Source: a virus
DNA: 64,000 bases
IMG/VR virus record: IMGVR_UViG_3300029955_000024
Reading direction: 5' to 3' (one strand)
Numbering within the stretch: position 1 is the stretch's first letter; each line of letters opens with the position of its first letter. The notes below the pieces were generated by a model, which did no database searches, was not told the origin of the DNA, and saw nothing but the letters and a program-made list of their open reading frames with translations. Positions 5,950 through 48,738 of the stretch are shown piece by piece. Position numbers and translations under genes: made by a program.

Positions 5950-6222
5950 ATACTCCTAAATTTGGCTGGGATTGAAGGCTCCCAGCAAGCCCTTACTATT
6001 AGAATTAACTAGGATCAAATAGGTAATTGGCCTAATAGTAATAACTACACACATATTCCACGCTCTTGTTGGCGGCCCCGGAAATCTGGACGATGTTCCC
6101 TACAGCGTTGCGGTCCCCAAACCGCTGCCAAATCCCGGTGAAACCAGTGTGTAGCAAAAGGTTAATTAACATCTACCGCTGTTTCTCCTCTCCCTCGATT
6201 AGCGGTGTCATCGAGGGGCAGG

Positions 6223-6447
6223 TTAATCTGAACCTTTACACGTTGGCTTACTATCAATGATAACGAGATTGGTCCCTGCAGGGTGTTCGTGCTTTTCGAG
6301 TACGTACCCTGTAGGACATTGCCACGTCCCCCAGCCATAATTGGTGTTGGGAAGAATAGCAGGCATATCATCATGATAGTTAATCCATGTAGGTTCAACT
6401 GTTTGCTTGTCAATAATTTCACCATCTTCCATGCGGCGATTCCGCAT
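6223..6447 (-). CDS. hypothetical protein (74 aa)
   Basis: ORF track; sits beside a GC-rich 270-bp non-coding stretch (5950-6222). Confidence 0.35.
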   Translation of the reverse strand: MRNRRMEDGEIIDKQTVEPTWINYHDDMPAILPNTNYGWGTWQCPTGYVLEKHEHPAGTNLVIIDSKPTCKGSD

Positions 6448-6458
6448 ACTGAAGACTA

Positions 6459-7115
6459 TTACATATTCTTCAGCAAATCTTCTGCGGCTGCCGTTGTCTC
6501 AGGATCTTCAGATGTAGTGACAGCTCCCATGGCACGGTTCAACTTCTCTGTGGCTATATCATTCTGTGCTCGCATGCGCCCTTCAACATCATCGACAGAG
6601 ATATCTGCCCCACTGCCTACTAATCTACCCGCGTGCTCAAGAGCAGTTGCTGCATGAGTTTGAGCCTTCGAGGACTGATTTAGTGCCTCAAGTTCACGAA
6701 CTTTGCTCAACATCTCTGCATGCTTACTGGTAATATTGGCGACTGAAATGTCCATCTTGTTCGATGTTTCCGTCTCTGAAATCAACAAAGCCTGCTTGTT
6801 GGTTACTTCATTCTGTAACCGAACAATTTCCTTTGCTTTTTCCAAAGCCTGATCAGGATGCCCGTTGTTTTTCAGCTTCGTTGCTGTAATTCTGGAGGTC
6901 TCGATTTTTGCATTGAGATCGTCGATCTCACGCTTTGTCGTGTGAACTGTAGCTGCTGCTACCGCTGCTTCTCCACGTAGCTGGTCAAGAGCCTCTTCCA
7001 GATCCCTTACATACTGCCGAAGAGCAGATGGACTGTTAAGATCGATCACTTTGTCAAGTAGATCATGGGTCTCACCAAGTCCAATCGTTCTGAGCTTGCT
7101 AAAAATTCCTGTCAT
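6459..7115 (-). CDS. pspA: PspA/IM30/Vipp1-family protein (phage shock protein A homolog)
   Basis: From internal Met: 'MTGIFSKLRTIGLGETHDLLDKVIDLNSPSALRQYVRDLEEAL...' parallels E. coli PspA '[40 protein letters not shown]', then long coiled-coil. ATG at 7113-7115 sits 17 nt after the TPM gene stop. The upstream 75 codons of the ORF are the TPM gene's Gly/Ser tail read in another frame. Confidence 0.85.
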   Translation of the reverse strand: MTGIFSKLRTIGLGETHDLLDKVIDLNSPSALRQYVRDLEEALDQLRGEAAVAAATVHTTKREIDDLNAKIETSRITATKLKNNGHPDQALEKAKEIVRLQNEVTNKQALLISETETSNKMDISVANITSKHAEMLSKVRELEALNQSSKAQTHAATALEHAGRLVGSGADISVDDVEGRMRAQNDIATEKLNRAMGAVTTSEDPETTAAAEDLLKNM

Positions 7116-7131
7116 TGCCTTTCCCTTCTTC

Positions 7132-8472
7132 TTAGAAATCGCTACTACCACCGCCGCCGCTGTCGGAACTGCTGCTACTGTCAAAGCTGCTACTCCCGCC
7201 GCTGTCAAAGCTAGAACTGGAATCAGAACTACCCCAACTGGATGAGCCACCAGACTCGCTTTCACGATCTGGTTCTGGATCTGGAGCTCTGTACGTTGAT
7301 TCTTCTCGTCTTGGTTCTTCGCGACGAATCTCTTCCACACGTGGTCGATTGTTTATAGATTCGCCGATGAGAACACCAGTCAATAAATCATTGTTGGGAG
7401 TTGATGTCGGTGTTGGTTCATAAGTCGGTCTTTGTTCTATGTTATGGTGCTGGTGATGATGCCTAACTTGGTTGTATCCAGTGGTATCATTTACATCGGC
7501 AGTGTCAATGGGGGGTCCTTGTTCAGCCGGCTGTTCCGTTGCCATTGGGCTCTGTACATATTTGTGTGCTGAACGTAGAGACTCGAACTTATCGATGAGG
7601 ATTCGATATTCTTTGGTAATGGCTTGATAACCATCTTCTGTCATACTTTGTTTGGGGTCCATCGAGTCTGAGTTCTCCATATTGGAAAACTCTTCCATAT
7701 ACGTATCAAACATATCTTGAATGGATTTCTCTGGTGGATCACTCTGGAACGCTGATTTGAGGGTAAGAACTAGCGCAATACATTGATTCTTTGTAACTTG
7801 AGCTAACCTCTTCGCTTTTGCTTTGGCATCTCTTATTTCTGCCCAACGGGTGCAAGCGATATACCCTGCGGCAATAATGAAGATTAAGAACCCCAATCCA
7901 AGACACCATAGTAGTACAGTCCATAAACCTTTATAGTCCGTTGCTTGGACATTGGTTGTGTTCTGGACTGGGTGTAGAGCTTCATCTTTGGAAGCCGCTA
8001 ATCGAAGTGAGAATTGTTCGATACCAGTAGACATGCCAAGTGCATAGTTACCGTCTTTGAATCTTGGGATCATATAGGACGTCATGATCCGGTTCCAATT
8101 TCCGTCTAGTGCGGAATGCCAAGCGGAACCATACATTATTCCTACTTTATGATTCCCGGCTAACATAAAAACAATGAGTGTACTTTTACGTCCACCGCTG
8201 CCACTTTCCCAAGAGGCACATTGGTTCTCCATCTGTTTTTCTGTGATATCGAGGTTGGTGCTATACCCGACTGTCCTTATTCGGACATCAGCGCCTTGTT
8301 GAACCAACCTGTTCGCAGCGGTTTCTACTGTTGTAATACCTTTTCCAAACAGATTTGCTTGGTCAATGACAATGTTGTCACACAATAGAGATTGAGCCAT
8401 GACCCAACCTGACGTTGAAAACACCATCATCATAACCAACAACGTATACATTGTCAGCTTTGAACTTTTCAT
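7132..8472 (-). CDS. TPM-domain (TLP18.3/Psb32/MOLO-1, YgcG-like) membrane protein
   Basis: Signal peptide (MKSSKLTMYTLLVMMMVFSTSGWVMA). TPM motifs 'VIDQANLF', 'LIVFMLAGNHKVGIMYGSAWHS', 'IPRFKDGNYALGMSTGIEQ'. One TM helix, then Gly/Ser-rich C-tail typical of YgcG. GGAGGTGGAG RBS before ATG at 8472. Confidence 0.8.
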   Translation of the reverse strand: MKSSKLTMYTLLVMMMVFSTSGWVMAQSLLCDNIVIDQANLFGKGITTVETAANRLVQQGADVRIRTVGYSTNLDITEKQMENQCASWESGSGGRKSTLIVFMLAGNHKVGIMYGSAWHSALDGNWNRIMTSYMIPRFKDGNYALGMSTGIEQFSLRLAASKDEALHPVQNTTNVQATDYKGLWTVLLWCLGLGFLIFIIAAGYIACTRWAEIRDAKAKAKRLAQVTKNQCIALVLTLKSAFQSDPPEKSIQDMFDTYMEEFSNMENSDSMDPKQSMTEDGYQAITKEYRILIDKFESLRSAHKYVQSPMATEQPAEQGPPIDTADVNDTTGYNQVRHHHQHHNIEQRPTYEPTPTSTPNNDLLTGVLIGESINNRPRVEEIRREEPRREESTYRAPDPEPDRESESGGSSSWGSSDSSSSFDSGGSSSFDSSSSSDSGGGGSSDF

Positions 8473-8524
8473 ACACTCCACCTCCAAGTGGATCGGGAGG
8501 GTTGTTACACCCTCCCTTTACTAG

Positions 8525-8824
8525 TTAGTAGTCGTTGATTACGTCGTCGCCATCAAAGTTACCGATATCGGTGTCGTCGGGTTCGTTGACAGGGGTCTTC
8601 TCAGGGATCCCAACTGGTTCCGATGGAGGAGTAGCAATTGGAGGCTTAACCTCTGGGGCTACTGGCGCTCCTTTCACTTTCTTCTTCTCTAGCTTCTTGA
8701 CGCTCGGTTCTTTCACATCCGGTTTAACGGTCTCGACAACTTTCTTCGTTGTCTTCGGGACATCCTTCTTTACGACTTTCTTGGATGCCTTCTTCTTGGT
8801 GACTACTGCTTTCTTTTTGGGCAT
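8525..8824 (-). CDS. Lys-rich histone H1-like / nucleic-acid-binding protein with acidic C-tail
   Basis: 99 aa: KKKAVVTKKKASKKVVKK... (about 30% Lys, Pro/Val spaced) ending DDTDIGNFDGDDVINDY. Confidence 0.5.
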   Translation of the reverse strand: MPKKKAVVTKKKASKKVVKKDVPKTTKKVVETVKPDVKEPSVKKLEKKKVKGAPVAPEVKPPIATPPSEPVGIPEKTPVNEPDDTDIGNFDGDDVINDY

Positions 8825-8890
8825 TGCTTTCTCCGAAAGGACAAGATAAATTCCCTGTCTCTTTTTCAGCGCTTACAACTGAACTTAATA

Positions 8891-9151
8891 TTAGTTTTTT
8901 CTTTTATCTTTTGTTAATCTTCTAAAGTGTTGTGAAATAGTGGTTACAACTTCATCGATCACCACTATAACTAACACGATTAAGGCGAAGGGTATCGTTA
9001 TAACCCAACTTATATAGAAAGGGAGGAGTACTAACCACCAAGACCATGTAATTATATGACATAGTTTGAGTACAACAAAAACTATGCCTAATACCCCAAA
9101 TATTGGGTTTAGATTTACATGAACGGTTGAAACTCTCGATGCGTTAGGCAT
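8891..9151 (-). CDS. small membrane protein (86 aa, 2-3 TM)
   Basis: Strongly hydrophobic ORF. Confidence 0.4.
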   Translation of the reverse strand: MPNASRVSTVHVNLNPIFGVLGIVFVVLKLCHIITWSWWLVLLPFYISWVITIPFALIVLVIVVIDEVVTTISQHFRRLTKDKRKN

Positions 9152-9232
9152 TTCCTCCCCTTATACTACTTAGCTTTAGCAGGGTTCTGTTTAGTAGCGC
9201 ACCTATTGCTAAGTCCAAGTATTGGAACATAG

Positions 9233-9457
9233 TTAACGACTTGCTAAAGACTGTTCTCGTCTAATTTTCGCCCAAGCAACATATGCCGCCACGGCTTGTG
9301 TAGAAATACTAAATGCCTTACCAATATTTGTACAAGTATACCCCTTCTTGTGCAAATCTACCATCGTCTTCTTGTCTGTATTACTGATGGTCACTTTCTT
9401 GGTAGGCTTTTTGTTACCTAACTTCTTTGTGCTCATTATTTCCTCGTTACGCACCAT
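9233..9457 (-). CDS. small HTH DNA-binding protein
   Basis: 74 aa; 'GYTCTNIGKAFSISTQAVAAYVAWAKIRR' helix-turn-helix-like. Confidence 0.45.
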   Translation of the reverse strand: MVRNEEIMSTKKLGNKKPTKKVTISNTDKKTMVDLHKKGYTCTNIGKAFSISTQAVAAYVAWAKIRREQSLASR

Positions 9458-9918
9458 CCAAATGTATGCATGGTGTAAATACCACTCTTGTAAGAGAAGT
9501 TTATATCTTCTCCGAGATTGGTTAGTTCATAGCCACCGCATATGGCTAATCCTTTTACAACTAGATTTATCTCATCTCGCGAGAATTTCGGGTTGTAATA
9601 CCTATCGGAACCCATTGATGCCATAGTGCGGTCGGCAACTGTCATAAACAGCAGGGCTTCGTCAGATAATCTACGTCTATTAAATAGTAGTGTTAAATCC
9701 TCTACTATTTTCATACAAAAGTGACAGCAAAAGTCTAGATTAGCACCGTTAAACACTGTATCTGTTGTACGTATAAATTCGTTAAAACTTATCGGCTTGT
9801 CTGGTAGAACAGCGGAAAGATGATGAATATTTCTCTTCTTTTCCTCTAATCCACTCGATCTATTCTCGACGATGTGGACTCGTCCAAACAAGAGGGCGAC
9901 TTCGTCATAGTCGGACAT
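9436..9918 (-). CDS. hypothetical protein (start uncertain; overlaps upstream gene)
   Basis: 214-aa ORF 9436..10080 shares 235 nt with 9846..10625 in another frame. Internal ATG at 9918 chosen; a frameshift or fusion is possible. Confidence 0.3.
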   Translation of the reverse strand: MSDYDEVALLFGRVHIVENRSSGLEEKKRNIHHLSAVLPDKPISFNEFIRTTDTVFNGANLDFCCHFCMKIVEDLTLLFNRRRLSDEALLFMTVADRTMASMGSDRYYNPKFSRDEINLVVKGLAICGGYELTNLGEDINFSYKSGIYTMHTFGWCVTRK

Positions 9919-10625
9919 GTCGTCTGCTGCGAACCAGATATATTCACCTCTAGCAGACGATCGAAGAGCGGAGATATATCTAAGCCATCCAATTCTCGAA
10001 CGCCTTTTTCCGTCAGTATCGAGCTGCTCTCGTTGAGAACGCGTGCGCCGAAGACTACGTTCTCGAATATCGAGATCCATATCGCTCTTGCCTCCATTAA
10101 CTTTGGTTTAAGTTCTTTATGTAAAGACAAGAGTTTGTCTATTGAAACGTTCAGTTCTTTATCACCCTCTGGATGCTTCACCTTCTCGTTGTATTGATGA
10201 ACGTTAAGACCTAACAATGAGATTTCCTCACATAACTGATTATGTATGACATATCTCTTTTCTTTCTTGTCTTTGTTTGTTGTAAGTTTCTTACTCCCCG
10301 GGGTAACCAAGCGGAATTTCTTTCCCCGCTTCTCAATCTTGAACCCAGTTGGTATAGTTGGAATGAACCCTTCGTCAATACATATTCTCACGGCAGAGCG
10401 AATGGCACTAACACAAGCTTTGATAGTAGCCGCGCTCAAATGATTTGGGTCCCCAGTTCCTACTCTACAAGTGTTTGTGAATAAATCACAAGCCTTATCG
10501 AGCTCTGCTACGGAGAAATCAAAGCACTCTTTAGCATGGTTTTTAACCATATCAAGTTGAGCTTTGCTTTTTGGTTTCTTCCCAACTATATATTTATACA
10601 CATCAGCTAGTGTCTGCTCAGCCAT
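9846..10625 (-). CDS. hypothetical protein (259 aa)
   Basis: Clean ORF; no family recognised. Confidence 0.45.
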   Translation of the reverse strand: MAEQTLADVYKYIVGKKPKSKAQLDMVKNHAKECFDFSVAELDKACDLFTNTCRVGTGDPNHLSAATIKACVSAIRSAVRICIDEGFIPTIPTGFKIEKRGKKFRLVTPGSKKLTTNKDKKEKRYVIHNQLCEEISLLGLNVHQYNEKVKHPEGDKELNVSIDKLLSLHKELKPKLMEARAIWISIFENVVFGARVLNESSSILTEKGVRELDGLDISPLFDRLLEVNISGSQQTTCPTMTKSPSCLDESTSSRIDRVD

Positions 10626-10636
10626 ATGGACCTTCC

Positions 10637-12148
10637 TTACACGTCTTTTAGGACGGTGAATGAATCCTTTCGTTTCCTTCTATGACAATTTGTACACATT
10701 ATGAACTCTTTTGTATCATTTTTACAATTGTATTCTTCCCTGATAGTGGTTTTTACCATTCCATGAGGATAATTTATCTCATTACTGTTTTTATCCTTCA
10801 TCCTAACCCCAGTAGTGAACATCATAGTTCCTTTACATTTGGGGCACTTTGCTGCTATACGGATAACCTTGGATTGGTCGGAGAAGAATCCAGTTTTCAG
10901 AAGTCTATTGACATGTTTATACCAAACTTCACAGATTGCTTTCTTAATTGAATCTTTACCATAACTAGGGTTCTCTAGTTGATAGTCAAAAGCACGCTCC
11001 AACATTCTTTTATATTCATTACTGGGGGTGAATCCCCACTCGGTGAGATCGTCGCCAGTAACCAATGGTTTGGGGAATCCAAGAGTCTTAGCAGCAGTTA
11101 TATACCCTATGGTATTCTCCATATTTATAGAGATGATCTTAGCATTAACTAGAATCCATAGTAATTCTATAGCTCTGTTTATATTTGGCTTGTTGGCAAG
11201 CTTCCTTCTTTCACATAGTGAAGTAAGCCTATTAGACCTAAGATCAATTACTATTTGCACCATCTCTGAGATTGTATTTCTGTCTTCGTTAGAGAATTTG
11301 AGATATTTTAATACATCCCCAATATTCCAATATATACCAGTTGTATACAAAAGACAACACCATGCTAAGATTGGATCTTTAACTTGTCCAATCTTGTCGA
11401 AATTGACAGTTTGATCTACTATATTAAAAAGGGAATTTGGTTGTTGCTCATAGATTTTGGTGTATAAATTAGTTCTCTGAAGACAGAACAAAGCGTCACC
11501 GACGTGTTCCCCCGTTATGAGCTTTGTCATTTCGTCTCTAACACGTTCTCGCGAAACCCTAATCATCAAATTTGCATTATTACGAATTGCTCGTAATGTC
11601 TCAAATTCTATCTGAAACCCAAGTTGTGACACGAATCTAACAGCTCTTAACATTCGAAGAGGATCCTCTTGGAAACGAATGTTAGGGTCACCAATACAAC
11701 CAATCCTTCGTATTGATATATCATATTTACCACCAACATAATCAATAACTTCCATTGACTCTGGGTTCATCAATATCCCATTCATCCTAAAATCTCTACG
11801 ACCAGCGTCAATACATTCTTGATCAGTAAATATAACACTATCCGGTCTACGAAGGTCTGAATACTCAGTAGAATCACTTCTCAATGTAGCTACTTCTATG
11901 GAGTGATCTACACCATCTATATCAACAAGGACTTTTACAACTCCGAATTCTACTCCAATTGGAATATTGTGGGGAAATAGATCCATTACTTCATTGGGTT
12001 TAGCTGAAGTACATATATCAAAGTCTTTCGGTTCCTTGTTCATAAGAAGGTTTCTAACACACCTACCTACAAGGAAGACTTTGAAGTTATTTTGCTTTAA
12101 CGTCTTAGCTACTTTCCTAGCAGCTTCTAAACTACTTATCTCTGGCAT
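10637..12148 (-). CDS. cca: CCA-adding tRNA nucleotidyltransferase / poly(A) polymerase family, with C-terminal Zn-ribbon extension
   Basis: Head-domain motifs 'GRCVRNLLMNKEPKDFDI' (GGxVRDxLL..DxD), 'RRDFRMNGILMNP' (RRDFTIN), 'EDPLRMLRAVRF'. C-terminal CPKCKG...CTNCH. ATG at 12148 with AAGGA RBS; the track's 12163 start is TTG. Confidence 0.85.
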   Translation of the reverse strand: MPEISSLEAARKVAKTLKQNNFKVFLVGRCVRNLLMNKEPKDFDICTSAKPNEVMDLFPHNIPIGVEFGVVKVLVDIDGVDHSIEVATLRSDSTEYSDLRRPDSVIFTDQECIDAGRRDFRMNGILMNPESMEVIDYVGGKYDISIRRIGCIGDPNIRFQEDPLRMLRAVRFVSQLGFQIEFETLRAIRNNANLMIRVSRERVRDEMTKLITGEHVGDALFCLQRTNLYTKIYEQQPNSLFNIVDQTVNFDKIGQVKDPILAWCCLLYTTGIYWNIGDVLKYLKFSNEDRNTISEMVQIVIDLRSNRLTSLCERRKLANKPNINRAIELLWILVNAKIISINMENTIGYITAAKTLGFPKPLVTGDDLTEWGFTPSNEYKRMLERAFDYQLENPSYGKDSIKKAICEVWYKHVNRLLKTGFFSDQSKVIRIAAKCPKCKGTMMFTTGVRMKDKNSNEINYPHGMVKTTIREEYNCKNDTKEFIMCTNCHRRKRKDSFTVLKDV

Positions 12149-12273
12149 ATATTCCTTGTTCAATCTTATCCCAAGTACTCAGGACTAAAAGGGGGTAGTG
12201 TAAGTTATAAAGTAGTAAAGTACACTACCCTTCGTATTTGTCTACTTCTGACCACCAAACCATCATGGCTTGT

Positions 12274-13191
12274 CTACTTGTTTGGAATTCCAATCAGAAA
12301 GTTTCCACCCTTGTCACCACCGGATAGATACTCTGGCATACGACCATCCCAACGCCAAATAGCAGCATTCTGGTTATCCAGTGCTCTCATATTTAAGATG
12401 TTTGGTGTGATTGAAGCGTTCCTGATTCTATTGGCTTCCGCTTCACCAGTAGCCTTGGTAATCTGTGCCTTAGCTTCACCCTCAGACTGAGCAACTAGTT
12501 TAGCTGCATCAGCTTGCACCTGAATAAGCTCAATCTGCTTCTTCTGTGCAACTTGATTTGCCTGTGCCTTATTGTTGATAGCATCGATTACTGATTGAGG
12601 TGGCCTTGGTGCTCCGATGAACCCGAACTGAGTAAGCTCAGCTCCATACTCTAATACTTGGCTTTGAACGCATTTCTTGGTTTCTTCAATGAAAACTGCG
12701 TTATCACCCATAACTTGTTCGATGCCATACTTGCCGGCATGTTCATTGAAGCAGTCTCTTGCTATGTTTCTAAGGAACCCGTGAGTGAATTTCGTATCAA
12801 TTTCTTTTTCGTCGTGTGCCAAGAACTTTACATAGAAGTATGGAACTTTCTCTGCATGTAGGAAATAACTCAATGAGATATCAGCACCAATTACCATTGA
12901 ATCTTTGTTGGTAAAGGTGATACTCTCGTCGATTGGCTTGCCCTCGTTGGGGCTTGCAGTCCATTTCGCTGTCTGCATGGAGGTTGGGTATTCATACACA
13001 CTCTCGGTAATTGGGTTATAAAACACCCAGCCAGTACGAACAGGGGTATCCGTTACCCCTTTGCTTGAACCTGCCATGTTTACAACAATTCCGACATGTC
13101 CCGGTCCAACTGACGTCCAGCCACAACCGGTTAGGAGACAAGCGGATAAGATAGTAACAATCAAGCTAAGATTCGCTGTGTTTAGTTTCAT
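12274..13191 (-). CDS. SPFH/band-7 (stomatin/prohibitin-like, YqiK/QmcA-type) lipoprotein
   Basis: Signal + lipobox LLTGC. 'VGPGHVGIVVNMAGSSKGV', coiled-coil 'AQANQVAQKKQIELIQVQADAAKLVAQSEGEAKAQ' and 'AEANRIRNASITPNILNMRALDNQNAAIWRWDGRMPEYLSGG' match the SPFH C-terminal region. AAGGAG RBS before ATG 13191. Confidence 0.8.
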   Translation of the reverse strand: MKLNTANLSLIVTILSACLLTGCGWTSVGPGHVGIVVNMAGSSKGVTDTPVRTGWVFYNPITESVYEYPTSMQTAKWTASPNEGKPIDESITFTNKDSMVIGADISLSYFLHAEKVPYFYVKFLAHDEKEIDTKFTHGFLRNIARDCFNEHAGKYGIEQVMGDNAVFIEETKKCVQSQVLEYGAELTQFGFIGAPRPPQSVIDAINNKAQANQVAQKKQIELIQVQADAAKLVAQSEGEAKAQITKATGEAEANRIRNASITPNILNMRALDNQNAAIWRWDGRMPEYLSGGDKGGNFLIGIPNK

Positions 13192-13441
13192 TTTCGTTCT
13201 CCTTGTGATACTGAAGTTGTAGGTAATGATATGTTTCTCCAAACAATTTATAACTCCAAGAACTTGCGTACTTCCAACTGATGAACAAACTAATCAATAC
13301 AACAAACAGCCCAAAGAAAGCCAATAGAGTACTGGGAGCGGATAAGGCAACAAACCCCCAATTCATGACATATAACCCAGCGCATGTTACAACTACAATC
13401 TTGAGAGATTGTATAAGGAAGTGCCACCAGAATCTATTCAT
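13166..13441 (-). CDS. small 2-TM membrane protein, possible NfeD/YqiJ-like partner of the SPFH protein
   Basis: 91 aa, two hydrophobic helices, sits immediately upstream of the SPFH gene and overlaps it by 26 nt. Confidence 0.35.
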   Translation of the reverse strand: MNRFWWHFLIQSLKIVVVTCAGLYVMNWGFVALSAPSTLLAFFGLFVVLISLFISWKYASSWSYKLFGETYHYLQLQYHKENENETKHSES

Positions 13442-13525
13442 ACAATAATCTCCTTAGTTTCATCTAGCATCCCATTCGCTACAATGAATAGGTATTACTT
13501 TTATCTTATTTTCCCCGCCACGCTA

Positions 13526-14053
13526 TTAAAAGTCTTCGTCAACACAACGCACGGGAATGACTCTTACTCCTTCTCTTCTCCACATATCAACAACCCGTTT
13601 ACGATCCTCAATGGCGAACAGAATTTGATCTTTTCCTCTTGGTAATGAGTTAACTAACTCATTCAGAATTTCCTTTTTTACTACGTCGCCTGGTCTCTTA
13701 TCCCCTTCCCAACAGAAGAATATCCAAGAGAAAGGAATGTCATATTTTCTTAACCACTCTACGGACAGATCCCCTGTTGTGAAAGAAGGGCGGCCAGATA
13801 TGATGACGATACTACAATCTTGAGAGATTGTCCGTACCCAAGAAGCTATAATGTCCACTGGAAGGTCATTACACGCTTCTATGTGAAATTGTTTGAAGTT
13901 TTTAGGATGAGATTTAACGTAGTGTAGTCTATGACTACAGTCTGACAGTGTTCCGTCTAGATCAACAATCACTACTGGTTTTTCTCCCCATTCTATCTTG
14001 TTCTCCAGTAATAACACTCTGGACTTTTCAACACTGTTACGACATGGTTTCAT
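13526..14053 (-). CDS. HAD-family polynucleotide 3'-phosphatase, T4 Pnkp phosphatase-domain-like (no kinase domain)
   Basis: 'VVIVDLDGTL' DxDGT motif. C-terminal 'DVVKKEIL...FAIEDRKRVVDMWRREGVRVIPV' matches remembered T4 Pnkp 'DVVKEEIF...[22 protein letters not shown]'. No P-loop. Confidence 0.6.
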   Translation of the reverse strand: MKPCRNSVEKSRVLLLENKIEWGEKPVVIVDLDGTLSDCSHRLHYVKSHPKNFKQFHIEACNDLPVDIIASWVRTISQDCSIVIISGRPSFTTGDLSVEWLRKYDIPFSWIFFCWEGDKRPGDVVKKEILNELVNSLPRGKDQILFAIEDRKRVVDMWRREGVRVIPVRCVDEDF

Positions 14054-14242
14054 CCTTGCTTACAGCTTCCTCTTCATTCTTTCTGAACCAAGGTTATCAG
14101 GTTATTTGGTGACATCCTCAAACTCTTGACTCCCTACTCAAATGCCAGTTATTATAACCTGGCACAAAAGAATTACGCCAATGACAATACATGCCCATTT
14201 GACAATCTTTAGGACTCTTCTCATCTCTCCCTGCTTGGTTTA

Positions 14243-14554
14243 CTAGCTACCGTACGGTCTTAGATCTGTTTTGGGAGGTATTGGTGGCGTTAACTTTCTG
14301 CTCCAACTTATTTCGTCTTCTGCGTAGTTGATCAAATATGCCAGTCCAAACAAGGAAGCTACTAAAGCTAGCTTGTTTAGTTTGAGGATTAACAGCACGA
14401 TAGCAATTGGAAAGAATCCCCATTGCAGGGTATAACCCATCCAATTCTTCCGTCTTGGCATGCGAATCTCCTTACCTTCCATTACAATCCCAACCCGTGG
14501 GGATATGTGTGGGCGAATTGTTACCACAACAGCCTTTGTTTTAACTACTGCCAT
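14243..14554 (-). CDS. hypothetical membrane protein (103 aa)
   Basis: ORF with one central hydrophobic helix. Confidence 0.4.
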   Translation of the reverse strand: MAVVKTKAVVVTIRPHISPRVGIVMEGKEIRMPRRKNWMGYTLQWGFFPIAIVLLILKLNKLALVASLFGLAYLINYAEDEISWSRKLTPPIPPKTDLRPYGS

Positions 14555-14635
14555 ACCATTTACTCTTTCTGTGTTCGTACGACATTAACAGTGTTAACGT
14601 TTAGGGATTGTTGTCATTTAGGGTTGTTGTTTAGG

Positions 14636-14908
14636 TCATACCCCGGAGTACTTATCTTTCCAAGGCTTGTAGATTTGATACCAAAGTCTTAGGCCACCGT
14701 ATCCAAGAGGCAATAGAACTGCTCCAGTGGCTACGACAGCACTTGTTGATGCTACGAACCCAGCCATTTCTTTCTTCTCAGCAAATGTCATGGGTTCCCT
14801 GTGTTCAGGTTCTGGTATTGGTTTTCCCTTTGTTCTGAGAACTATTACAATACCAGAACCAAGAACAACTAAAAAGAGGATGTACATCAAAATGGATACA
14901 TCTCCCAT
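14636..14908 (-). CDS. small membrane protein
   Basis: Internal Met MGDVSILMYILFLVVLGSGIVIV chosen because the 5' part of the ORF overlaps 14911..15567. Confidence 0.4.
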   Translation of the reverse strand: MGDVSILMYILFLVVLGSGIVIVLRTKGKPIPEPEHREPMTFAEKKEMAGFVASTSAVVATGAVLLPLGYGGLRLWYQIYKPWKDKYSGV

Positions 14909-14910
14909 GG

Positions 14911-15567
14911 TTATTCCTCGGGTACCCCTTTTCCAACTTCTGATTCTTTTGGCTCTTCTGCCGTAACTTCTGCTACGTCCCCCTCTTTGGGCACCGGCCC
15001 GTCGCAACCTCCTGCCTCCCACGCCCCTCCAGCGGTCGAGCTGGGAGCGCCCGCAGCGTGCTCTTCCATGGTGGCGTTCAGCTCATCAGCGAAATCAATT
15101 GACTTCTGAAGTCTGATGAACAAGCGGAACAATGGATAAGACAGTTCGTTCTGGTGTTTGTCCAACCAACCTTCCAGAACTGCCCTGTTTATATCAACTT
15201 TGCTTTCCGCTTCTTCGAGGGTTGCAGGTTTTACCATGTCTTCAACTATCTTTTCCTTGAAGTCTTGACTTCTTTCGATGAGCTCTCCTAGCTCCGTTTC
15301 AGAGGGGTCTACCCCAAATAACTCGATCGAAAGAACCTTAACCAAATGTTCTGCCTCTTCTGGTTCAAGAGCAACCTGCAAAACCATTGGTTCAGTGTAC
15401 CCAGTGCTGTGATTTGGGACGAGACGCCAAGCTCTTAGGCAATAACCAATCGTCCCAAGCATCCTCTGGCTGAACTCGATCAGATCAATCTTATGGGTAG
15501 GCGTATCGAGTATACCTGCTAACTTCGTCTCGATCTCTTGTGTTGCACGGCTTCCACCTAAGCTCAC
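14911..15567 (-). CDS. hypothetical acidic protein (218 aa)
   Basis: ORF track. Confidence 0.45.
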   Translation of the reverse strand: MSLGGSRATQEIETKLAGILDTPTHKIDLIEFSQRMLGTIGYCLRAWRLVPNHSTGYTEPMVLQVALEPEEAEHLVKVLSIELFGVDPSETELGELIERSQDFKEKIVEDMVKPATLEEAESKVDINRAVLEGWLDKHQNELSYPLFRLFIRLQKSIDFADELNATMEEHAAGAPSSTAGGAWEAGGCDGPVPKEGDVAEVTAEEPKESEVGKGVPEE

Positions 15568-15734
15568 TTGTTCCTCCTTGATTTCCGGTTAAGTTAACTC
15601 TGAGAACTTCTCTCTCGATTGTGAGAGGGGTAGTCCGTTTCTCACATCGTTTACAGCGTCGGCACATTTCATACTAGCTGCAATAACGATTACTATCCAG
15701 AAAAATAAGCGGAGGACATTCAACAATACGCTCA

Positions 15735-41553: not shown

Positions 41554-44500
41554 TTATCCCACCTCATCAGGATTAGGTTCTTCGAATGCCTCATAATTCT
41601 TCTGAGGCAACAAAGACTCGTGTGATTCTCTCAGAATCACCATTCCATCTTCCATTGTGAAGCCACCGAACTCTATCCCCTCGTCCTCTAGCCTTACAGG
41701 GATAGTTCCAATAGCTTCCATAGTGCTTAACCGATACACAATACCAGCCTCCTTGATCACAACATCAACCTTAGCTTCGCCAAGGTCATAAGCAAACTCC
41801 TCGTCCAAATCCACTGGTACTACAAGCCCAGTTATTGGACGCAGCTTACGAGTCTTGATATCCATATACTTGATATCCCGACTCGCCTGAATAATCGCAT
41901 TACCCATGCGCTTAGTCCACAACATACCATCTGGGAAGCTCTTTCGCTTCCCCATCTCCTCTCCCTCAACAACATACTGAGCATCTGCGTAGATGGTGTG
42001 ATACAGATAGCAGAGCAGCTCTACAGCCATCTGCTTAACAGTGTCATCATCAAACTGTGCCAGATACTCAGCACAATCATTCTCTACCTTCTTATACGCT
42101 TCGTTAAGACCCTCTCTGGTCATTGGATTACCAGCGCCAAGGATAGCTTTCCAGCCACCTCTCCACACCTGTATATAACCAGGCGCATCTTCACGCTTCC
42201 GACCGGGATTGGAACCGAGATAGACAGCGATGTCCGGGCTATGCCCACCCATCTCAAACACAAATGCTTCATCGGCAGGAGCTACTGATATCCACTCACG
42301 CAGCTTCAGACGATCTATCAACACATCACGTTTATGTGTTAAGTCTTTCAGACTCTTACACATAAGCGAGTCATAAATGTGATAATCAGCCTTAGCTACC
42401 TTAGTGGTGGGGATTCTAAGGGTATCCTTCCCACTAATACGCTTACCCATAGTAGCAATATATGGATAGATCAGAGTCCCTTCCAATCCAATGTTCTCAA
42501 CAGGTTCTCTACCTTCCTGTAAGCCACTATGGAACTGACGTACAGCATCGCTAACGTTACCAAGTTGAACCAAGATGTTTGCATCCAGAACAACGCCATC
42601 AATGACATGTTCCAGATTAGTTTCAAACTTCCTCATCTGATAAAGAGGTCTCATCACAAACCACTCACGGGTTGCTTCGAGGTCAGCAATCTTAGCAAGG
42701 TTACCAAACCTCTTAGCTTCAGCGATTTCAGCATCGAGCTGTTCAAACATATATGCCCGATCCGCTGCATTGGACAACCTATTGTCAATCATATTTGCAT
42801 TAACAACAGGTCCAATTCCAGCACCGCTCCTCTGCTTCCTATCAATCTGATAAGCAAAGTGCCGATTGTTATACCATTCCTTCACGCCGCGACCGGGGAT
42901 TTTATAACCTTCAGCTTCTGCTTCTTCATCAAACTGACGACGAAGCACAGCTCCTGACTTCTTGATCTTAGCAGTTTCTGGATACGGGTTATCGTTCAAT
43001 TCCTTGAACTTGTTAACCCAGAATTCATCAAATACTACGATGAAGCGATCATCCAGATCACCACCACCTAATCTGGCTAACACTTTGTTACAGCCAGCGC
43101 CGAGAATGATAATACCTTTCCCAGCGAACCTAGCATAACGCTGATGGTGGATATTCTTGAGAATCACGAATGCATTCTGATTCTCATTTGGTTGTCTATA
43201 ACAGGCAACCAAAATACCAGCAGGGATGTCCATCATACAGCACTCATCTTTACCAATGAGCTCATCCTCAATTGGTAACAGATTCCCTTCCGTATCATGC
43301 ATATACGGGTCATGGATACAATATCCACTAACAGCTACCTTATCCAATGGGATACGTCCACGCTCCATTTGCATGACACGATACATCATGAAGTTGTTAA
43401 CCCTACGACCCAATCCCGGGTACTTAAGAGCAGACCATCCATTGATGACCGCTTCTCTCAGCACCCAAGCATCCCAATCAATCATTGAGATCCCATCATT
43501 GTAGTAATGCTCATCATCACGTACACTGTTGATATACTTAACCAACAGCTTCGTGATTTCCTTGTTATCCATCGTCTTGTTCCAATAATCCAGACGGAAC
43601 AGCTGAGCTTGATAATCAATCATGCCCGGACGCTCAAAGCGGAAGTTATCCCAGCTTTGCATATCACTGAACGGCATGATCTTCTTCAGCTTACCAAAAC
43701 AGCCGAAGTAGAACCGCTCATTCTTAATCATAGTCTTGGACCCATACACTACGAAGTCATACTCCAAATCCTCCTTATAGACGAAGTTACCCTTCGGCAT
43801 ACCTACATACCTCTCACCAATAGTGCACTGCCATGCATCTCCAATACGTGGATGCTTGCTAAGTCCAACAGACTTTGCACCATGTTCTCCTACCAAGCCG
43901 CCACCATCCAACCGAGCAGCGTCATCATCTGTCAGTCCATCGATGCTATTAAACTTCACGGTAATGATGGCACCGTTATCCAAACGATACACACCAATAC
44001 CAGCGACAACATCGAACTTAACCGGTTTACCTAACGCATGCACCCAAGTTGGTGCCATCTCACGGTTTAAATACTTACCCGCTTTCAGGCATTTCTCCAA
44101 ATCATTGAGCTCAATCCAGATCCCAACACTTCTCAAATCCACTAAATTTGTCATGGCATCAGGAACGAGATAAGCAGTAGCCCTGTCATCTCTCTGATAA
44201 CCAAACAAACACTTATAGTGGATTCCCTCGTATTGATACCCACTGTTCATAACTCGCTCTGCTACCGCAGAGTCATCAGTTACAAACTCTATGTAGGTAC
44301 AGTCTAATGCGTCTTCCAACAGCCATGGAACTTCCGCATACGGCCCATAAGCTCTGAAGAACTTAGGATCATCGTCAAGTTTTGACCCAAACTTAACTTT
44401 ATTACGACGATGAGCCTCTGTATACGGAGTCCGAGTAACAAGCTTCTTGTTACTCTTCATCCATTCAACAACAGCGATCTTCTTTACTCCTCCATCATCC

Positions 44501-45339
44501 ATCTTTACTACCTCCTTTACAACATCCTTCTTAACCGGTTCAGTAGGAACCGGAGGATTCAATTTAGTCCAGAGCTGCTCAGGGCTAATACGCACCATAG
44601 GTGCATTAACCCGAAGGCAATAACGCCATCTGTTGTTAACAGACTCATACATCACACACCAACCACTCGTTAGATACCAAACAGTATCTAACGCATTAGG
44701 TTGGAGTGCTCCCTTAACCTTCTCATTCAAGAAGGCAAATAGTCTCTCCTTAACAGGTACCTCAATAACCGGTACCTTCTCAACAACAGGTTCAATCCGA
44801 GGCTCACCAAGCTTGGTAAATGCCTCATCCACCACGGTATCAGAGACATATTGGTCGCCAAGCAGTTTCTTTACAATCACATCCTGAGATACCTCGTTCA
44901 ATTGCTTATCAGCAATAGAACGCATACCCCAGCGATTCGCATCAATGTTATGAGCGACAAACGTTGTGCCAATGTCCCAACTCTGGAACCCCGGCATAGA
45001 CAAAGAAGGCTTACCCACTTCCTTATTTAGGTAATCCAACAAATTGATTACCTTAGGAGTTTCAGCCTTCTTCTCCACAACTGGCTCAGCCGGCTGAGAT
45101 ACAGGTACCTTCACCAACGCCTTCTCAGCTTCCAATAGAAGTGTTACCTTAGTCACATTGGACCGGATCCACTTCTTAGCCTCCTCATTCCTAACCGCCC
45201 AGATATCGGTATTTTCATAGAACATCACCGACAAACCACCGATGACAAACAAAGTCTTGTTACCATCCTGTTTGTCCGCAGAAGCACCCATAGCAGCAAA
45301 CAACGCAACCAACGTATTAGAATCCATAACACACTCCAT
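41554..45339 (-). CDS. 1261-aa protein, candidate non-canonical single-subunit RNA polymerase (YonO / cellular RdRP-like two-barrel) - tentative
   Basis: 'LGGGDLDDRFIVVFDEF' resembles the (S)GGDLDGD catalytic loop of RdRP/YonO-type polymerases. No DNA Pol A/B motifs and no Walker A were found. Confidence 0.35.
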   Translation of the reverse strand: MECVMDSNTLVALFAAMGASADKQDGNKTLFVIGGLSVMFYENTDIWAVRNEEAKKWIRSNVTKVTLLLEAEKALVKVPVSQPAEPVVEKKAETPKVINLLDYLNKEVGKPSLSMPGFQSWDIGTTFVAHNIDANRWGMRSIADKQLNEVSQDVIVKKLLGDQYVSDTVVDEAFTKLGEPRIEPVVEKVPVIEVPVKERLFAFLNEKVKGALQPNALDTVWYLTSGWCVMYESVNNRWRYCLRVNAPMVRISPEQLWTKLNPPVPTEPVKKDVVKEVVKMDDGGVKKIAVVEWMKSNKKLVTRTPYTEAHRRNKVKFGSKLDDDPKFFRAYGPYAEVPWLLEDALDCTYIEFVTDDSAVAERVMNSGYQYEGIHYKCLFGYQRDDRATAYLVPDAMTNLVDLRSVGIWIELNDLEKCLKAGKYLNREMAPTWVHALGKPVKFDVVAGIGVYRLDNGAIITVKFNSIDGLTDDDAARLDGGGLVGEHGAKSVGLSKHPRIGDAWQCTIGERYVGMPKGNFVYKEDLEYDFVVYGSKTMIKNERFYFGCFGKLKKIMPFSDMQSWDNFRFERPGMIDYQAQLFRLDYWNKTMDNKEITKLLVKYINSVRDDEHYYNDGISMIDWDAWVLREAVINGWSALKYPGLGRRVNNFMMYRVMQMERGRIPLDKVAVSGYCIHDPYMHDTEGNLLPIEDELIGKDECCMMDIPAGILVACYRQPNENQNAFVILKNIHHQRYARFAGKGIIILGAGCNKVLARLGGGDLDDRFIVVFDEFWVNKFKELNDNPYPETAKIKKSGAVLRRQFDEEAEAEGYKIPGRGVKEWYNNRHFAYQIDRKQRSGAGIGPVVNANMIDNRLSNAADRAYMFEQLDAEIAEAKRFGNLAKIADLEATREWFVMRPLYQMRKFETNLEHVIDGVVLDANILVQLGNVSDAVRQFHSGLQEGREPVENIGLEGTLIYPYIATMGKRISGKDTLRIPTTKVAKADYHIYDSLMCKSLKDLTHKRDVLIDRLKLREWISVAPADEAFVFEMGGHSPDIAVYLGSNPGRKREDAPGYIQVWRGGWKAILGAGNPMTREGLNEAYKKVENDCAEYLAQFDDDTVKQMAVELLCYLYHTIYADAQYVVEGEEMGKRKSFPDGMLWTKRMGNAIIQASRDIKYMDIKTRKLRPITGLVVPVDLDEEFAYDLGEAKVDVVIKEAGIVYRLSTMEAIGTIPVRLEDEGIEFGGFTMEDGMVILRESHESLLPQKNYEAFEEPNPDEVG

Positions 45340-46758: not shown

Positions 46759-47061
46759 TTACCTAACTACAGACGTATCAATAGTCTTGGTATACCCCCT
46801 CACAGCAGCAGCCAATGCCTGCTTCTTGGTCATAATACGTGTGTTACCCATATACGTATTGAAGTAATGACGCACAGTCTGTTCTGGTATGGTACCGAAC
46901 GACACTGACATCAACTCCGCCTGAAGCTCTGCAAACAACTGTTTGCGACCTTCTTCCCTAAGTGCCAACACAATGCTCAGAGTAGATGGAACAACCACCT
47001 GCTTCTGCTTATTGATGTTAATGGTACGAGCGGTGGCGAGCTTAGACCCAAATACGGTCAT
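46759..47061 (-). CDS. hypothetical protein (start at second Met of MYM)
   Basis: AAGGAG sits 6 nt before the ATG at 47061; leader shared with 47192..47407. Confidence 0.45.
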   Translation of the reverse strand: MTVFGSKLATARTININKQKQVVVPSTLSIVLALREEGRKQLFAELQAELMSVSFGTIPEQTVRHYFNTYMGNTRIMTKKQALAAAVRGYTKTIDTSVVR

Positions 47062-47191
47062 ATACATCTCCTTGTGAGCTATACAAGCTCCTTTGATAAC
47101 AGACATTACATAGCCTGCATCCTTCCATACACATAATACTTAGGTGTACAGAAGGATACAGGCCCTCCCTAAGGAGGACCTATATACATAA

Positions 47192-47407
47192 CTACACATG
47201 CTGACAATGTCCACCATGTAAACCCTTTGCAGGATATTCACATGGTGAATACGCCTCTATCCCCTCATTAATACATTTAGGACAGCGATTGTCTGTATAG
47301 AGCGCCTTTGGGTAATAGCAATCACAAGTTACGCATTCATACATGTTTTCACAGCGATTAAGCTCTACCAATGCGTCCCAAACAACAGCTTTATCAAGCT
47401 TAGCCAT
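47192..47407 (-). CDS. Cys-rich small protein (zinc-ribbon-like)
   Basis: CxxC...CxxC; same conserved leader/RBS as 46759..47061. Confidence 0.45.
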   Translation of the reverse strand: MAKLDKAVVWDALVELNRCENMYECVTCDCYYPKALYTDNRCPKCINEGIEAYSPCEYPAKGLHGGHCQHV

Positions 47408-47537
47408 ATACATCTCCTTGTGAGTCATACAGACTCCTTAGTGCAAGGTATTACCTAACCTGCACTCTTAAACGTATGTGTTACACAGGTATACGCTTAA
47501 GAGCACAGGCCCTCCCACTTAAGGGAGGACCTATATC

Positions 47538-47825
47538 CTATTTCATGTTGTTCGGATCCAGCATACGTTCCTGAGCGAAATCGCAAAACTCCCTGTATTC
47601 AATACAGGTAATCTCACCATCTCTCTCACCAAGAAGATGTTCAATAGCGTGTTGTAAGAACACATATACACCCGGAGCTAGCACTTGGGTGTATACTATT
47701 TCAGCTAATAACTTCGTAGCGGGAATAGCTGCAATGGCATCCTGTCTAGCTTGCCATACGGCAAGCTCCTTCTTCCAGTGATTGTGAGACATACTGCCTC
47801 CTTGTAGCAACCGAAAGCTACACAT
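47538..47825 (-). CDS. hypothetical protein (95 aa)
   Basis: ORF track. Confidence 0.4.
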   Translation of the reverse strand: MCSFRLLQGGSMSHNHWKKELAVWQARQDAIAAIPATKLLAEIVYTQVLAPGVYVFLQHAIEHLLGERDGEITCIEYREFCDFAQERMLDPNNMK

Positions 47826-47906
47826 TACGTGGGACCCATCTTGTAAATGGGTCTTGTCGGTTAACTATGTGGTTATCCCACATAGCTACTCCCGATTAAT
47901 ACCGAA

Positions 47907-48107
47907 CTATAACCACGTCACTGGGTTTTCAGCAAAGACGTGTCTCACGTCTTTACCTTTTAACCAACACGCGTGGTCCAGCTCCGCCGCCTCGTTGGGT
48001 GACCTCCACCGAGTACAGAGAATTACTGGGGTTCCGCTGGAAAGGTCTACTACATTGTATAAATAAGACCGTTCCGACAGATTGGCGAAGAACGACGAGT
48101 TATTCAT
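47907..48107 (-). CDS. hypothetical protein (66 aa)
   Basis: ORF track. Confidence 0.3.
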   Translation of the reverse strand: MNNSSFFANLSERSYLYNVVDLSSGTPVILCTRWRSPNEAAELDHACWLKGKDVRHVFAENPVTWL

Positions 48108-48255
48108 TTACTTCCTCCTTCTAGAATAAGGCTCTAGATAACCAACCTCACTACTAATAGAGTCCTCTTAGAAAGGACTCTTGTGGGTTATCACGAGACT
48201 ATCCTCGTGATCTTCCCCTGTTAAAGGGGAGTAGTTTCCTACTCCCCCATGTTTA

Positions 48256-48621
48256 CTACCTTGGCGGCAGGACGATCCCCTGTCCTGACTTCTCCGCCAA
48301 CCTCGCTGCCAAGTTGTCATCCCATTCCTGGGATGTGGCGACAAGCTTGTTAAGTGTCGCGTCAACGGCGTCCTTCGCCCTTGATGTAAAGGGATCGATA
48401 ATGATCCCTGCCACGAGCACACTTACAAGGACGTGACCTGCTCCGTTCTCGATCGATTGCTCGATCGCTTTCGCCCCGTTGTGAAGGGACTTCAGCATTC
48501 TGTACTTTGCAACGGCAGCTGCTGCTCTTTCTCCGTGAGTCATTGTAATTCCTCCTGGTGATTTATTTAATGAAGGGGTGGGCTCGAATGTATCTGTCGA
48601 ATCCTTCTCCTTCATAATCAC
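48256..48621 (-). CDS. first gene of leftward early block, hypothetical (121 aa; true start may be an internal Met)
   Basis: ORF adjacent to the divergent promoter region. Confidence 0.4.
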   Translation of the reverse strand: MIMKEKDSTDTFEPTPSLNKSPGGITMTHGERAAAAVAKYRMLKSLHNGAKAIEQSIENGAGHVLVSVLVAGIIIDPFTSRAKDAVDATLNKLVATSQEWDDNLAARLAEKSGQGIVLPPR

Positions 48622-48738
48622 CTATACTATCAATCCATTACACTTTCTGGGTGGCTATAAGACTTTATCCAGTACGTCTATACTAAATATATTTATAGAT
48701 CCTTTGGATATTTCTAGTTCTGATGGTATAATAAAGAC
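48622..48738. promoter_or_regulatory. divergent promoter region at strand-switch point
   Basis: 117-bp AT-rich gap between divergent genes. On plus: TTGGAT-17 nt-TATAAT ending 6 nt before ATG 48739 (possibly leaderless). Confidence 0.45.

Follow-up and report, generated by a model that had tools for sequence, protein, structure and literature searches.

A PspA homologue paired with a TPM-domain membrane protein: a conserved two-gene cassette on phage contigs

Why should a phage encode its own PspA, a protein named for the bacterial response to phage proteins? The question is raised by a 64,000-nucleotide stretch of viral DNA (IMG/VR record IMGVR_UViG_3300029955_000024, here called the window), in which a gene for a PspA/IM30 homologue lies directly downstream of one for a TPM-domain membrane protein. 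Some 3.8 kb from this pair is a gene for an SPFH/Band_7 lipoprotein, the start of which is overlapped by the gene for a small protein with two transmembrane segments. A preliminary description had read these four genes as a single membrane-stress module. We find that the PspA and TPM genes do form a unit, a cassette of two genes, inherited as a whole, that has moved among unrelated phage genomes. The SPFH pair is not part of it: unrelated genes intervene, and the pair is a separate, common phage unit with relatives in 718 phage records. All four genes are on the minus strand, at the coordinates given in the preliminary description (Table 1).

The family assignments first proposed hold, since all three proteins score above the Pfam curated cut-offs in hidden Markov model searches. 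The PspA homologue matches PF04012 (PspA_IM30) over residues 3-170 with 58.1 bits (cut-off 33.9, E = 1.3e-15), the TPM protein matches PF04536 (TPM_phosphatase) with 41.5 bits (cut-off 22.1, E = 1.6e-10) and the SPFH protein matches Band_7 with 85.7 bits (cut-off 23.6, E = 5.1e-24). PF04012 is present in all but two of 57 homologues of the window PspA, and a profile of this family can be aligned from one end to the other with Nostoc Vipp1 (6zvr, E = 1.9e-4). The AlphaFold2 (AF2) model of PspA, with a predicted local distance difference test score (pLDDT) of 79, has helices at residues 4-26, 29-83, 87-167, 174-197 and 205-217 and reproduces the α0-α5 layout. When it is compared with the PDB by Foldseek, Vipp1 and PspA account for 13 of the 15 best matches, followed by CHMP, CdvB and Snf7, the ESCRT-III proteins of eukaryotes and archaea. 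For the TPM model the ten best matches are all TPM domains; its matches include 2kw7, 5anp, 7tbr, 3ptj and 4oa3, with template modelling scores of 0.55-0.70 on the target, and its homologues carry the Joint Genome Institute name 'uncharacterized membrane protein YgcG'. Phosphatase activity has been reported for one member of the TPM family, TLP18.3.

The phage PspA is nevertheless far from the familiar ones. An NCBIfam scan of the proteins of the region gave no PspA match of any kind, and in an exhaustive profile search of 1.84 billion cluster representatives only 175 matched at E <= 1e-30, rising to no more than 585 at E <= 1e-3. We conclude that the window protein belongs to a branch of PspA that is small and divergent and occurs chiefly on phage contigs. 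Its best-conserved stretch, residues 25-40 (DLNSPSALRQYVRDLE), spans the α0/α1 junction. The start codon, ATG 7115, is set by an N-terminus common to 22 homologues and by a Shine-Dalgarno (SD) sequence; a longer open reading frame (ORF) from 7340 was rejected, being an out-of-frame reading of the Ser/Gly-rich tail of the TPM protein. Membership of the family predicts that this PspA would self-assemble into rings or rods and would bind or seal membranes.

That the PspA and TPM genes belong together, as had been supposed, is established by their association in other genomes. Loci were pooled from a homologue search with PspA (57 proteins, a good number of them from contigs of 85-216 kb), contig look-ups, a scan of IMG/VR (11 loci) and a scan of prokaryotic genomes, one for each species (six loci), leaving 26 distinct loci once duplicates were removed. 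A TPM homologue adjoins PspA in 25 of them, and in the single locus that has none PspA begins 41 nt from the contig end. The scan from the TPM side used a 12-sequence subset, the full TPM alignment being too variable; it gave seven viral loci, and PspA adjoins TPM in every one. TPM comes first in the majority of loci and PspA in four, and the gap is mostly less than about 120 nt, with one to four small unrelated genes inserted now and then. The two proteins have also diverged together, their pairwise identities being correlated (Mantel r = 0.77, p = 2e-4). The neighbours, on the other hand, depend wholly on the locus (NUDIX and NAMPT genes together with RNA ligases in one group, DNA polymerase A and RecA in a second, methylases in a third), and clustering of the flanking ORFs gave no further family common to the loci. 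In the window the GC content of both genes, overall and at third codon positions, is typical of the surrounding DNA, and the cassette therefore shows no sign of recent insertion.

One side observation concerns these flanks. A family of 143-206-residue proteins with no Pfam match, recognised by the motif DALETLGTII...GRDAIHLAVEP, has members no more than 10 kb from the cassette at three independent loci (Table 1), in one of which the gene lies between TPM and PspA.

Where does the cassette occur? Most of the 26 loci are IMG/VR viral or phage-like contigs of 30-360 kb. The window itself encodes a large terminase and a portal protein and is therefore part of a tailed phage; moreover, an identical PspA is found on a 215,488-bp metagenomic contig, so that the source is a jumbo phage. 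Its terminase shows only distant kinship to those of Moorella phage MTATph1, Bacillus phage 0305phi8-36 and Acinetobacter phage ME3, the identity with that of ME3, a jumbo phage, being 27%. Among 185,579 species genomes there are only six cassette loci, all on contigs of metagenome-assembled genomes from unrelated phyla. At least two of the six look cellular, with CopC/CopD, oligopeptidase F or LUD-domain genes, and one has integrases; where the TPM protein was found in these loci (L022, L023, L025-L027) it is about 800 residues long.

Deposited phage genomes present a different picture. A tblastn search of 50,697 deposited phage records with PspA and with the TPM protein gave no match to either. 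Megablast of positions 6000-14000 against these records also found nothing, PHROGs has no family for PspA or the TPM protein, and the PspA query had no match among plasmids. The literature searched describes no TPM-PspA pair in a phage, in keeping with the earlier statement that this is not a described phage module. The nearest case is that of the Jug (jumbo gut) phages, predicted to infect Bacteroides or Phocaeicola, which likewise encode a pspA-like gene, there transcribed within an operon; it adjoins terD genes, and the account mentions no TPM partner for it (PMC12880540).

Two other candidates for a phage PspA were rejected. A Nostoc Vipp1 query against the phage records found only two scaffolds named 'UNVERIFIED Bacteriophage sp.'. 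The one inspected (MT835668.1, locus L043) does encode a canonical PspA (PF04012, 138 bits), but this is flanked by genes for a class I (Trp/Tyr-type) tRNA-synthetase domain, the Trp repressor, PcrA/UvrD and a tRNA methyltransferase, and the scaffold is therefore bacterial DNA in a phage collection. The other candidate is a 229-residue 'PspA/IM30 family protein' of phage ME3, which came up at E = 0.06 in a viral structure library, where the PspA model retrieved nothing at E <= 0.001. No sequence method supports this name: neither the PspA and TPM profiles of the phage cassette nor Vipp1 match any ORF of the whole ME3 genome, and ME3_238, the only 229-residue coiled-coil candidate and perhaps the protein so named in UniProt, has no Pfam PspA match and an hhalign probability of 1%. 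ME3_238 lies between small membrane proteins, beside a 481-residue AAA+ ATPase (ME3_236-239; L041 33400-36144). No sequence-detectable PspA was thus confirmed among the 50,697 deposited records.

The architecture of the TPM protein suggests what its role might be. Read by eye from the sequence, it begins with a signal-like segment, and the confidently modelled TPM domain that follows is predicted to be extracytoplasmic; two invariant cysteines, C31 and C85, fit an oxidising location of this kind. The single transmembrane helix is preceded by the motif ATDxxGLW, in which D179, G182, L183 and W184 are invariant. Beyond the membrane the model shows helices at 181-244, 249-267 and 279-307, that is, a three-helix bundle continuous with the transmembrane helix, which contains the invariant residues A224, P273, Y282 and Y289; residues 208-307 are our candidate for the PspA-binding surface. 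The remaining residues form a disordered Ser/Gly/Asp-rich tail, ...SSDSGGGGSSDF, ending in GGSSDF, a motif conserved in 26 homologues. We propose that the TPM protein is the membrane anchor, or receptor, of the phage PspA. MIT domains bind ESCRT-III tails, and the TPM model did give a Foldseek match to one of them (2dl1), which at E = 1.9 and a probability of 0.23 is far too weak and was not used.

The layout of the DNA points to joint expression. The TPM stop and the PspA start are separated by 16 nt, rather than the 17 nt first given, and one transcript probably covers both genes. A 52-nt spacer on the upstream side of TPM folds into two hairpins; the first has a perfect GGGAGGG/CCCTCCC stem with no U-tract, and the second, which takes in part of the TPM SD sequence GGAGGUGGA, might control TPM translation. 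A scan for promoters and terminators found sites only within coding sequence, at a frequency near the shuffle expectation.

A bacterial precedent for such a pair is already known. In Bacillus subtilis the ydjF(pspA)-GHI operon, described by Ravi 2024 (PMC11237479), is a case in which PspA, TPM and SPFH proteins are known to work together, and this speaks for the earlier interpretation (PMC11237479, PMC8581546). Deletion of ydjG or ydjH abolishes the membrane foci of both PspA and YdjI (Scholz 2021, PMC8581546), and in two-hybrid assays YdjH interacts with PspA and with YdjI, a soluble, cytosolic SPFH protein (PMC8581546). As in this pspA-ydjGHI (samGHI) arrangement, the phage pspA adjoins a gene for a TPM-domain membrane protein, which like YdjH (PMC11237479) would have an extracytoplasmic TPM domain, one transmembrane helix and a low-complexity tail; it is by this architecture and by gene adjacency that we liken it to YdjH. 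The network of B. subtilis includes an SPFH protein, and the window too has one nearby. There are differences, however. The phage cassette has no conserved YdjG-like zinc-ribbon membrane protein, TPM precedes PspA in most loci, the α0 of its PspA looks only weakly amphipathic, and it is phage-borne, of a distinct sequence subfamily and free of sigma-W regulation. Unlike YdjI, the phage SPFH protein is an exported lipoprotein, encoded 3.8 kb away, and an SPFH gene accompanies only four of the 26 loci. We conclude that the cassette is a reduced version, carried by phages, of an arrangement already familiar from bacteria; what is new is that it is conserved and mobile, of a divergent subfamily and absent from cultured phages.

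Other PspA systems offer further comparisons. With the proteobacterial Psp system (PspF-PspABCDE) the phage cassette shares a PspA/IM30 effector of ESCRT-III-like fold and a presumed need for a membrane-integral receptor, but Pfam finds no PspB, PspC or PspF family among ten neighbouring proteins, and the TPM protein would take the place of PspBC as receptor. The best structural and profile matches, with full-length alignment, are to the Vipp1/IM30 proteins of cyanobacteria and chloroplasts; the phage protein nevertheless lacks the Vipp1 C-terminal extension and is only about 20% identical. Its N-terminal helix, predicted by AF2 with low confidence, also appears far less amphipathic: a simple and crude measure gives it a hydrophobic moment of about 0.2, which does not exceed that of shuffled sequence, whereas Nostoc Vipp1 reaches 0.54-0.61 and an approximate E. 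coli PspA sequence 0.42-0.49. A weakly amphipathic α0 would fit dependence on a receptor.

How, then, might the cassette serve a phage? We consider it rather probable that a phage-borne, TPM-anchored PspA maintains the host membrane during infection. The TPM protein would be exported by means of its signal sequence, leaving the TPM domain, with its disulfide, facing the periplasm or the cell exterior, one helix spanning the membrane, and the three-helix domain and disordered Ser/Gly/Asp tail on the cytoplasmic side. This cytoplasmic part would bring the phage PspA, a cytoplasmic protein of ESCRT-III type, to the membrane, as YdjH does for PspA in B. subtilis. There PspA would polymerise on damaged or leaky patches and limit the leakage of protons, an effect that PspA, LiaH and Vipp1 have in cells, keeping the host inner membrane sealed and energised and so allowing a large phage with a long replication cycle to complete it before lysis. 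The small membrane protein and the SPFH protein may cooperate with the TPM ectodomain but would not be required.

Several points weigh against this interpretation. Contact between the TPM protein and PspA is argued from adjacency, co-divergence and the analogy with B. subtilis, and the benefit to the phage from the role that PspA has in bacteria. The amphipathicity comparison is crude, with one of its sequences approximate, and the cassette is carried by no cultured phage.

Might the membrane be protected from the host itself? The cassette could act in counter-defence, sealing the lesions made by membrane-puncturing or depolarising abortive-infection effectors, for example the transmembrane effectors of Thoeris or of cyclic-oligonucleotide-based anti-phage signalling systems (CBASS), gasdermins or Rex-like channels, until progeny mature. 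Its neighbours speak for this. In four loci (L001-L004) the pair directly follows NUDIX and NAMPT genes, a domain pair by which the locus resembles NARP2, the proven anti-defence pathway that reconstitutes NAD+ by means of a Nampt and an adenylyltransferase (Nmnat) (bioRxiv 10.1101/2024.02.11.579819); the same loci hold RNA ligases, PNKP, Thg1, NADAR and PTH2. In the window, too, the surroundings of the cassette include tRNA genes and genes for a CCA-adding enzyme and a PNKP-type phosphatase, and all these neighbours have functions that repair what the host breaks. The argument is one of association alone, however, and elsewhere the pair adjoins DNA polymerase, RecA, methylases or unknown genes; furthermore, a PADLOC scan of eight proteins of the region gave no meaningful match. 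We therefore regard counter-defence as unlikely to be the primary role. The same low estimate applies to its broader form, a portable, minimal ESCRT-III repair kit in which the TPM receptor replaces targeting by an amphipathic helix and which would patch the inner membrane as a broad counter-defence against pore-forming or depolarising effectors.

The layout of these four loci is of interest in its own right. On phage contigs of 159-216 kb, at about 6400-15700 of each locus, the pair is followed by a T4-type RNA ligase, Thg1 (L001 and L002 only), NADAR and PTH2 (L003 and L004), while PNKP and a second RNA ligase lie upstream; from its gene content the neighbourhood looks like one of repair and counter-defence.

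What part does the SPFH protein play? A third interpretation joins everything into one membrane-stress machine, with the SPFH protein (and its small membrane partner) and the TPM ectodomain outside and PspA inside. In its favour, the B. subtilis YdjH is a binding partner of PspA as well as of YdjI, an SPFH protein, and SPFH genes lie within 10 kb of the cassette in four of the 26 loci, in three non-orthologous architectures: a lipoprotein of about 300 residues in the window and in L021 (55% identical), a 408-residue protein with an N-terminal transmembrane segment directly upstream of TPM in L008, and a 628-residue Band_7 protein in L049. Such recurrence is suggestive of a functional link, the background tested being that of the window type only. 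The sidedness would also be appropriate. The SPFH protein of Escherichia phage PhiR41_1 (L030 1486-2316) has Asp at position +2 after the lipobox cysteine, where the window protein has Gly, and in E. coli an Asp at +2 keeps a lipoprotein in the inner membrane, which suggests that the SPFH protein sits on the outer face of the cytoplasmic membrane. As a lipoprotein the phage SPFH protein is thus predicted to share its side of the membrane with the TPM domain; that it would be separated from PspA by the membrane, whereas YdjI is cytosolic, weakens the case for one module.

The distribution of the SPFH gene argues otherwise. The flanks of 22 of the 26 loci have no SPFH gene. Four of the five close viral relatives of the window SPFH have no PspA-TPM pair within 10 kb, the fifth being L021 itself, and the 718 phage records with relatives of this protein, found by tblastn and representing many hosts, have no detectable PspA or TPM. 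Given a background of about 0.006 window-type genes per 20 kb (719 places in 2.3 Gb), the one further case in 25 loci compares with 0.16 expected and is not significant. In the window, six or seven unrelated ORFs separate the two units. The preliminary description had rightly placed a Lys-rich and a membrane protein in this interval, which in addition holds a helix-turn-helix (HTH)-like ORF, two overlapping ORFs and a 508-residue enzyme of the CCA-adding family. A single machine of PspA, TPM and SPFH proteins is, in our judgement, still less likely than counter-defence, although a looser functional link between SPFH and the cassette is plausible.

Instead, the small membrane protein and the SPFH protein appear as a unit of their own. 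The SPFH protein falls within phrog_200 ('lipoprotein', 'prohibitin family protein'; 2.4e-61), and its ATG at 13191 is preceded by the SD sequence AAGGAG. In Vibrio phage CKB-S1, Desulfovibrio phage ProddE and PhiR41_1, the cultured phages compared at this gene, as well as in L021 and L045, an ORF of 65-90 codons with two hydrophobic stretches overlaps or abuts the SPFH gene. The three cultured phages share with the window the lipobox and the small upstream hydrophobic ORF, and since this layout recurs in phages the pair is a widespread unit in its own right. Its SPFH protein has no distinguishing feature within phrog_200, an ordinary member of a family of unknown function, and its link to the PspA cassette is loose. 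The NfeD-SPFH arrangement first proposed is borne out in part: as in the YuaF-FloT and YbbJ-QmcA operons, a gene for a small membrane protein directly precedes and overlaps the SPFH gene, but the 91-residue partner has no match to NfeD or to any other family in Pfam, PHROGs or NCBIfam, and the phage SPFH protein is lipid-anchored and exported rather than anchored by a transmembrane helix.

Two of the SPFH-bearing loci have further neighbours. In L021 (2000-3821) genes for an endonuclease VII and a TROVE/Ro60-vWA protein lie between TPM and the SPFH pair. In L049 (1-3372, on a 105-kb contig) a protein with the shoulder domain of the major vault protein, an SPFH-like fold, accompanies the 628-residue Band_7 protein, 3.5-7 kb upstream of TPM.

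Lysis offers another setting for a membrane-protecting protein. Collapse of the membrane potential triggers holin firing, and the cassette might set the time of lysis, through an antiholin-like or rI/rII-like delay of holin collapse, or else exclude superinfecting phages through its periplasmic TPM domain. PspA counteracts loss of the proton-motive force in bacteria, as two published accounts state (PMC5333519, PMC7577978). The TPM domain and the SPFH lipoprotein would be exposed where incoming phage DNA crosses the envelope, and the rIIA/rIIB genes of the jumbo phage ME3 indicate that membrane-protection genes occur in large phages. No lysis genes are seen beside the pair in any locus, however, and nothing ties TPM domains to exclusion; we think these roles quite improbable, and they overlap with maintenance of the host membrane rather than excluding it. 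Weakest of all, and very improbable, is that PspA buds or tubulates a compartment or assembly platform, as published work on membrane tubulation and fusion by PspA and Vipp1 might suggest but with no compartment or shell genes near the pair, or that it is a decoy for PspA-using systems of the host, for example the Bacillus CBASS cyclase kept inactive by conjugation to host PspA (PMC11153139), which would leave the strict coupling to an exported TPM protein unexplained and sits badly with a subfamily so divergent from host PspA. These last three alternatives, the single machine included, are the less likely ones.

The wider window, whose features are collected in Table 1, is organised in two blocks. 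Nearly all long ORFs between about 1.6 and 47 kb are on the minus strand, and those from 49 kb on are on the plus strand; at about 47000-49000, where coding passes to the plus strand and the GC skew reverses, a long non-structural block is divided from one for packaging and structure. The CCA-adding enzyme, the PNKP-type HAD phosphatase and the two tRNA-Met genes together have the look of a tRNA-repair set. Between the cassette and the SPFH pair, two minus-strand ORFs without a family match, 9436-10080 and 9846-10625, overlap by 235 nt in different frames, and gene callers are split on identical DNA (L005 and L006); programmed frameshifting, a genuine overlap or one spurious ORF may account for this. 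The 86-residue membrane protein of phrog_1374 is not kept beside the cassette in other loci. A gene for an adenylosuccinate-synthetase-like protein has a counterpart in a related PspA locus (L052), where an Adenylsucc_synt gene lies two genes downstream of PspA; no DatZ or MazZ partner for the window gene was present among ten other window ORFs scanned.

Table 1. Coordinates of the genes, protein segments and spacers discussed (window positions unless a locus is named).
Feature	Coordinates	Strand	Basis or remark
PspA/IM30 gene (ESCRT-III superfamily), 218 aa	6459..7115	minus	Pfam PF04012
Spacer from TPM stop to PspA ATG, 16 nt	7116..7131	minus	SD-like GAAGGGAAAGG inside
TPM-domain single-pass membrane protein (YgcG-like), 446 aa	7132..8472	minus	Pfam PF04536
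Disordered tail of TPM protein, aa 308-446	7135..7551	minus	AF2 pLDDT below 50
Predicted cytoplasmic helical domain, aa 208-307, conserved	7552..7851	minus	AF2 pLDDT 95-98
Predicted transmembrane helix, aa 183-207	7852..7926	minus	hydropathy scan; AF2 helix from residue 181
TPM domain, aa 33-166, predicted extracytoplasmic	7975..8376	minus	AF2 pLDDT 94-97
Signal-like hydrophobic N-terminal segment, aa 1-26	8395-8472	minus	by eye from sequence
Spacer upstream of TPM gene, 52 nt, two hairpins	8473..8524	minus	RNA fold -24.4 kcal/mol, z = -3.6
99-aa protein, histone-H1-like Lys-rich N-terminal half, acidic tail	8525-8824	minus	no family match
86-aa Trp-rich membrane protein	8891-9151	minus	phrog_1374 (6.8e-20), phage family of unknown function
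HTH-like ORF	in the 3.8-kb TPM-SPFH interval	minus	
CCA-adding/poly(A)-polymerase-family enzyme, 508 aa, Cys-rich C-terminal extension	10637-12163	minus	
SPFH/Band_7 lipoprotein, 305 aa, lipobox LTGC	12274..13191	minus	Pfam Band_7
Small protein, 91 aa, two hydrophobic segments	13166..13441	minus	26-nt overlap with SPFH start
PNKP-type HAD phosphatase	13526-14053	minus	
Two tRNA-Met genes	1359-1435 and 2620-2694	minus	
Dps/ferritin-like protein	1680-2168	minus	Pfam Ferritin on identical contig; phrog_3636 'DNA binding protein', 1.2e-27
Adenylosuccinate-synthetase-like protein, 417 aa	17323-18576	minus	phrog_1211 (PurZ family, 2-aminoadenine Z-genome phages), 1e-61
1261-aa ORF	41554-45339	minus	no PHROG match
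Large terminase	55851-57878	plus	plus-strand block
Portal	60292-62592	plus	plus-strand block
DALETLGTII-motif family members	L014 9156-9587; L019 7946-8542; L049 340-960		

What does such a cassette mean for the phages that carry it? A phage that encodes its own PspA, together with a dedicated receptor, reverses the usual picture of phage and PspA, with the implication that some large phages actively maintain the membrane of their host. As a compact two-protein system the pair could also reveal how a TPM protein recruits an ESCRT-III polymer, a question that extends to YdjH of B. subtilis. Should the cassette prove to protect against abortive infection directed at the membrane, it would represent a new class of generic anti-defence function, parallel to the neighbouring NAD+-reconstitution and tRNA-repair genes that undo other forms of self-sabotage by the host, and it would be relevant to the choice or engineering of phages for use against defence-rich hosts.

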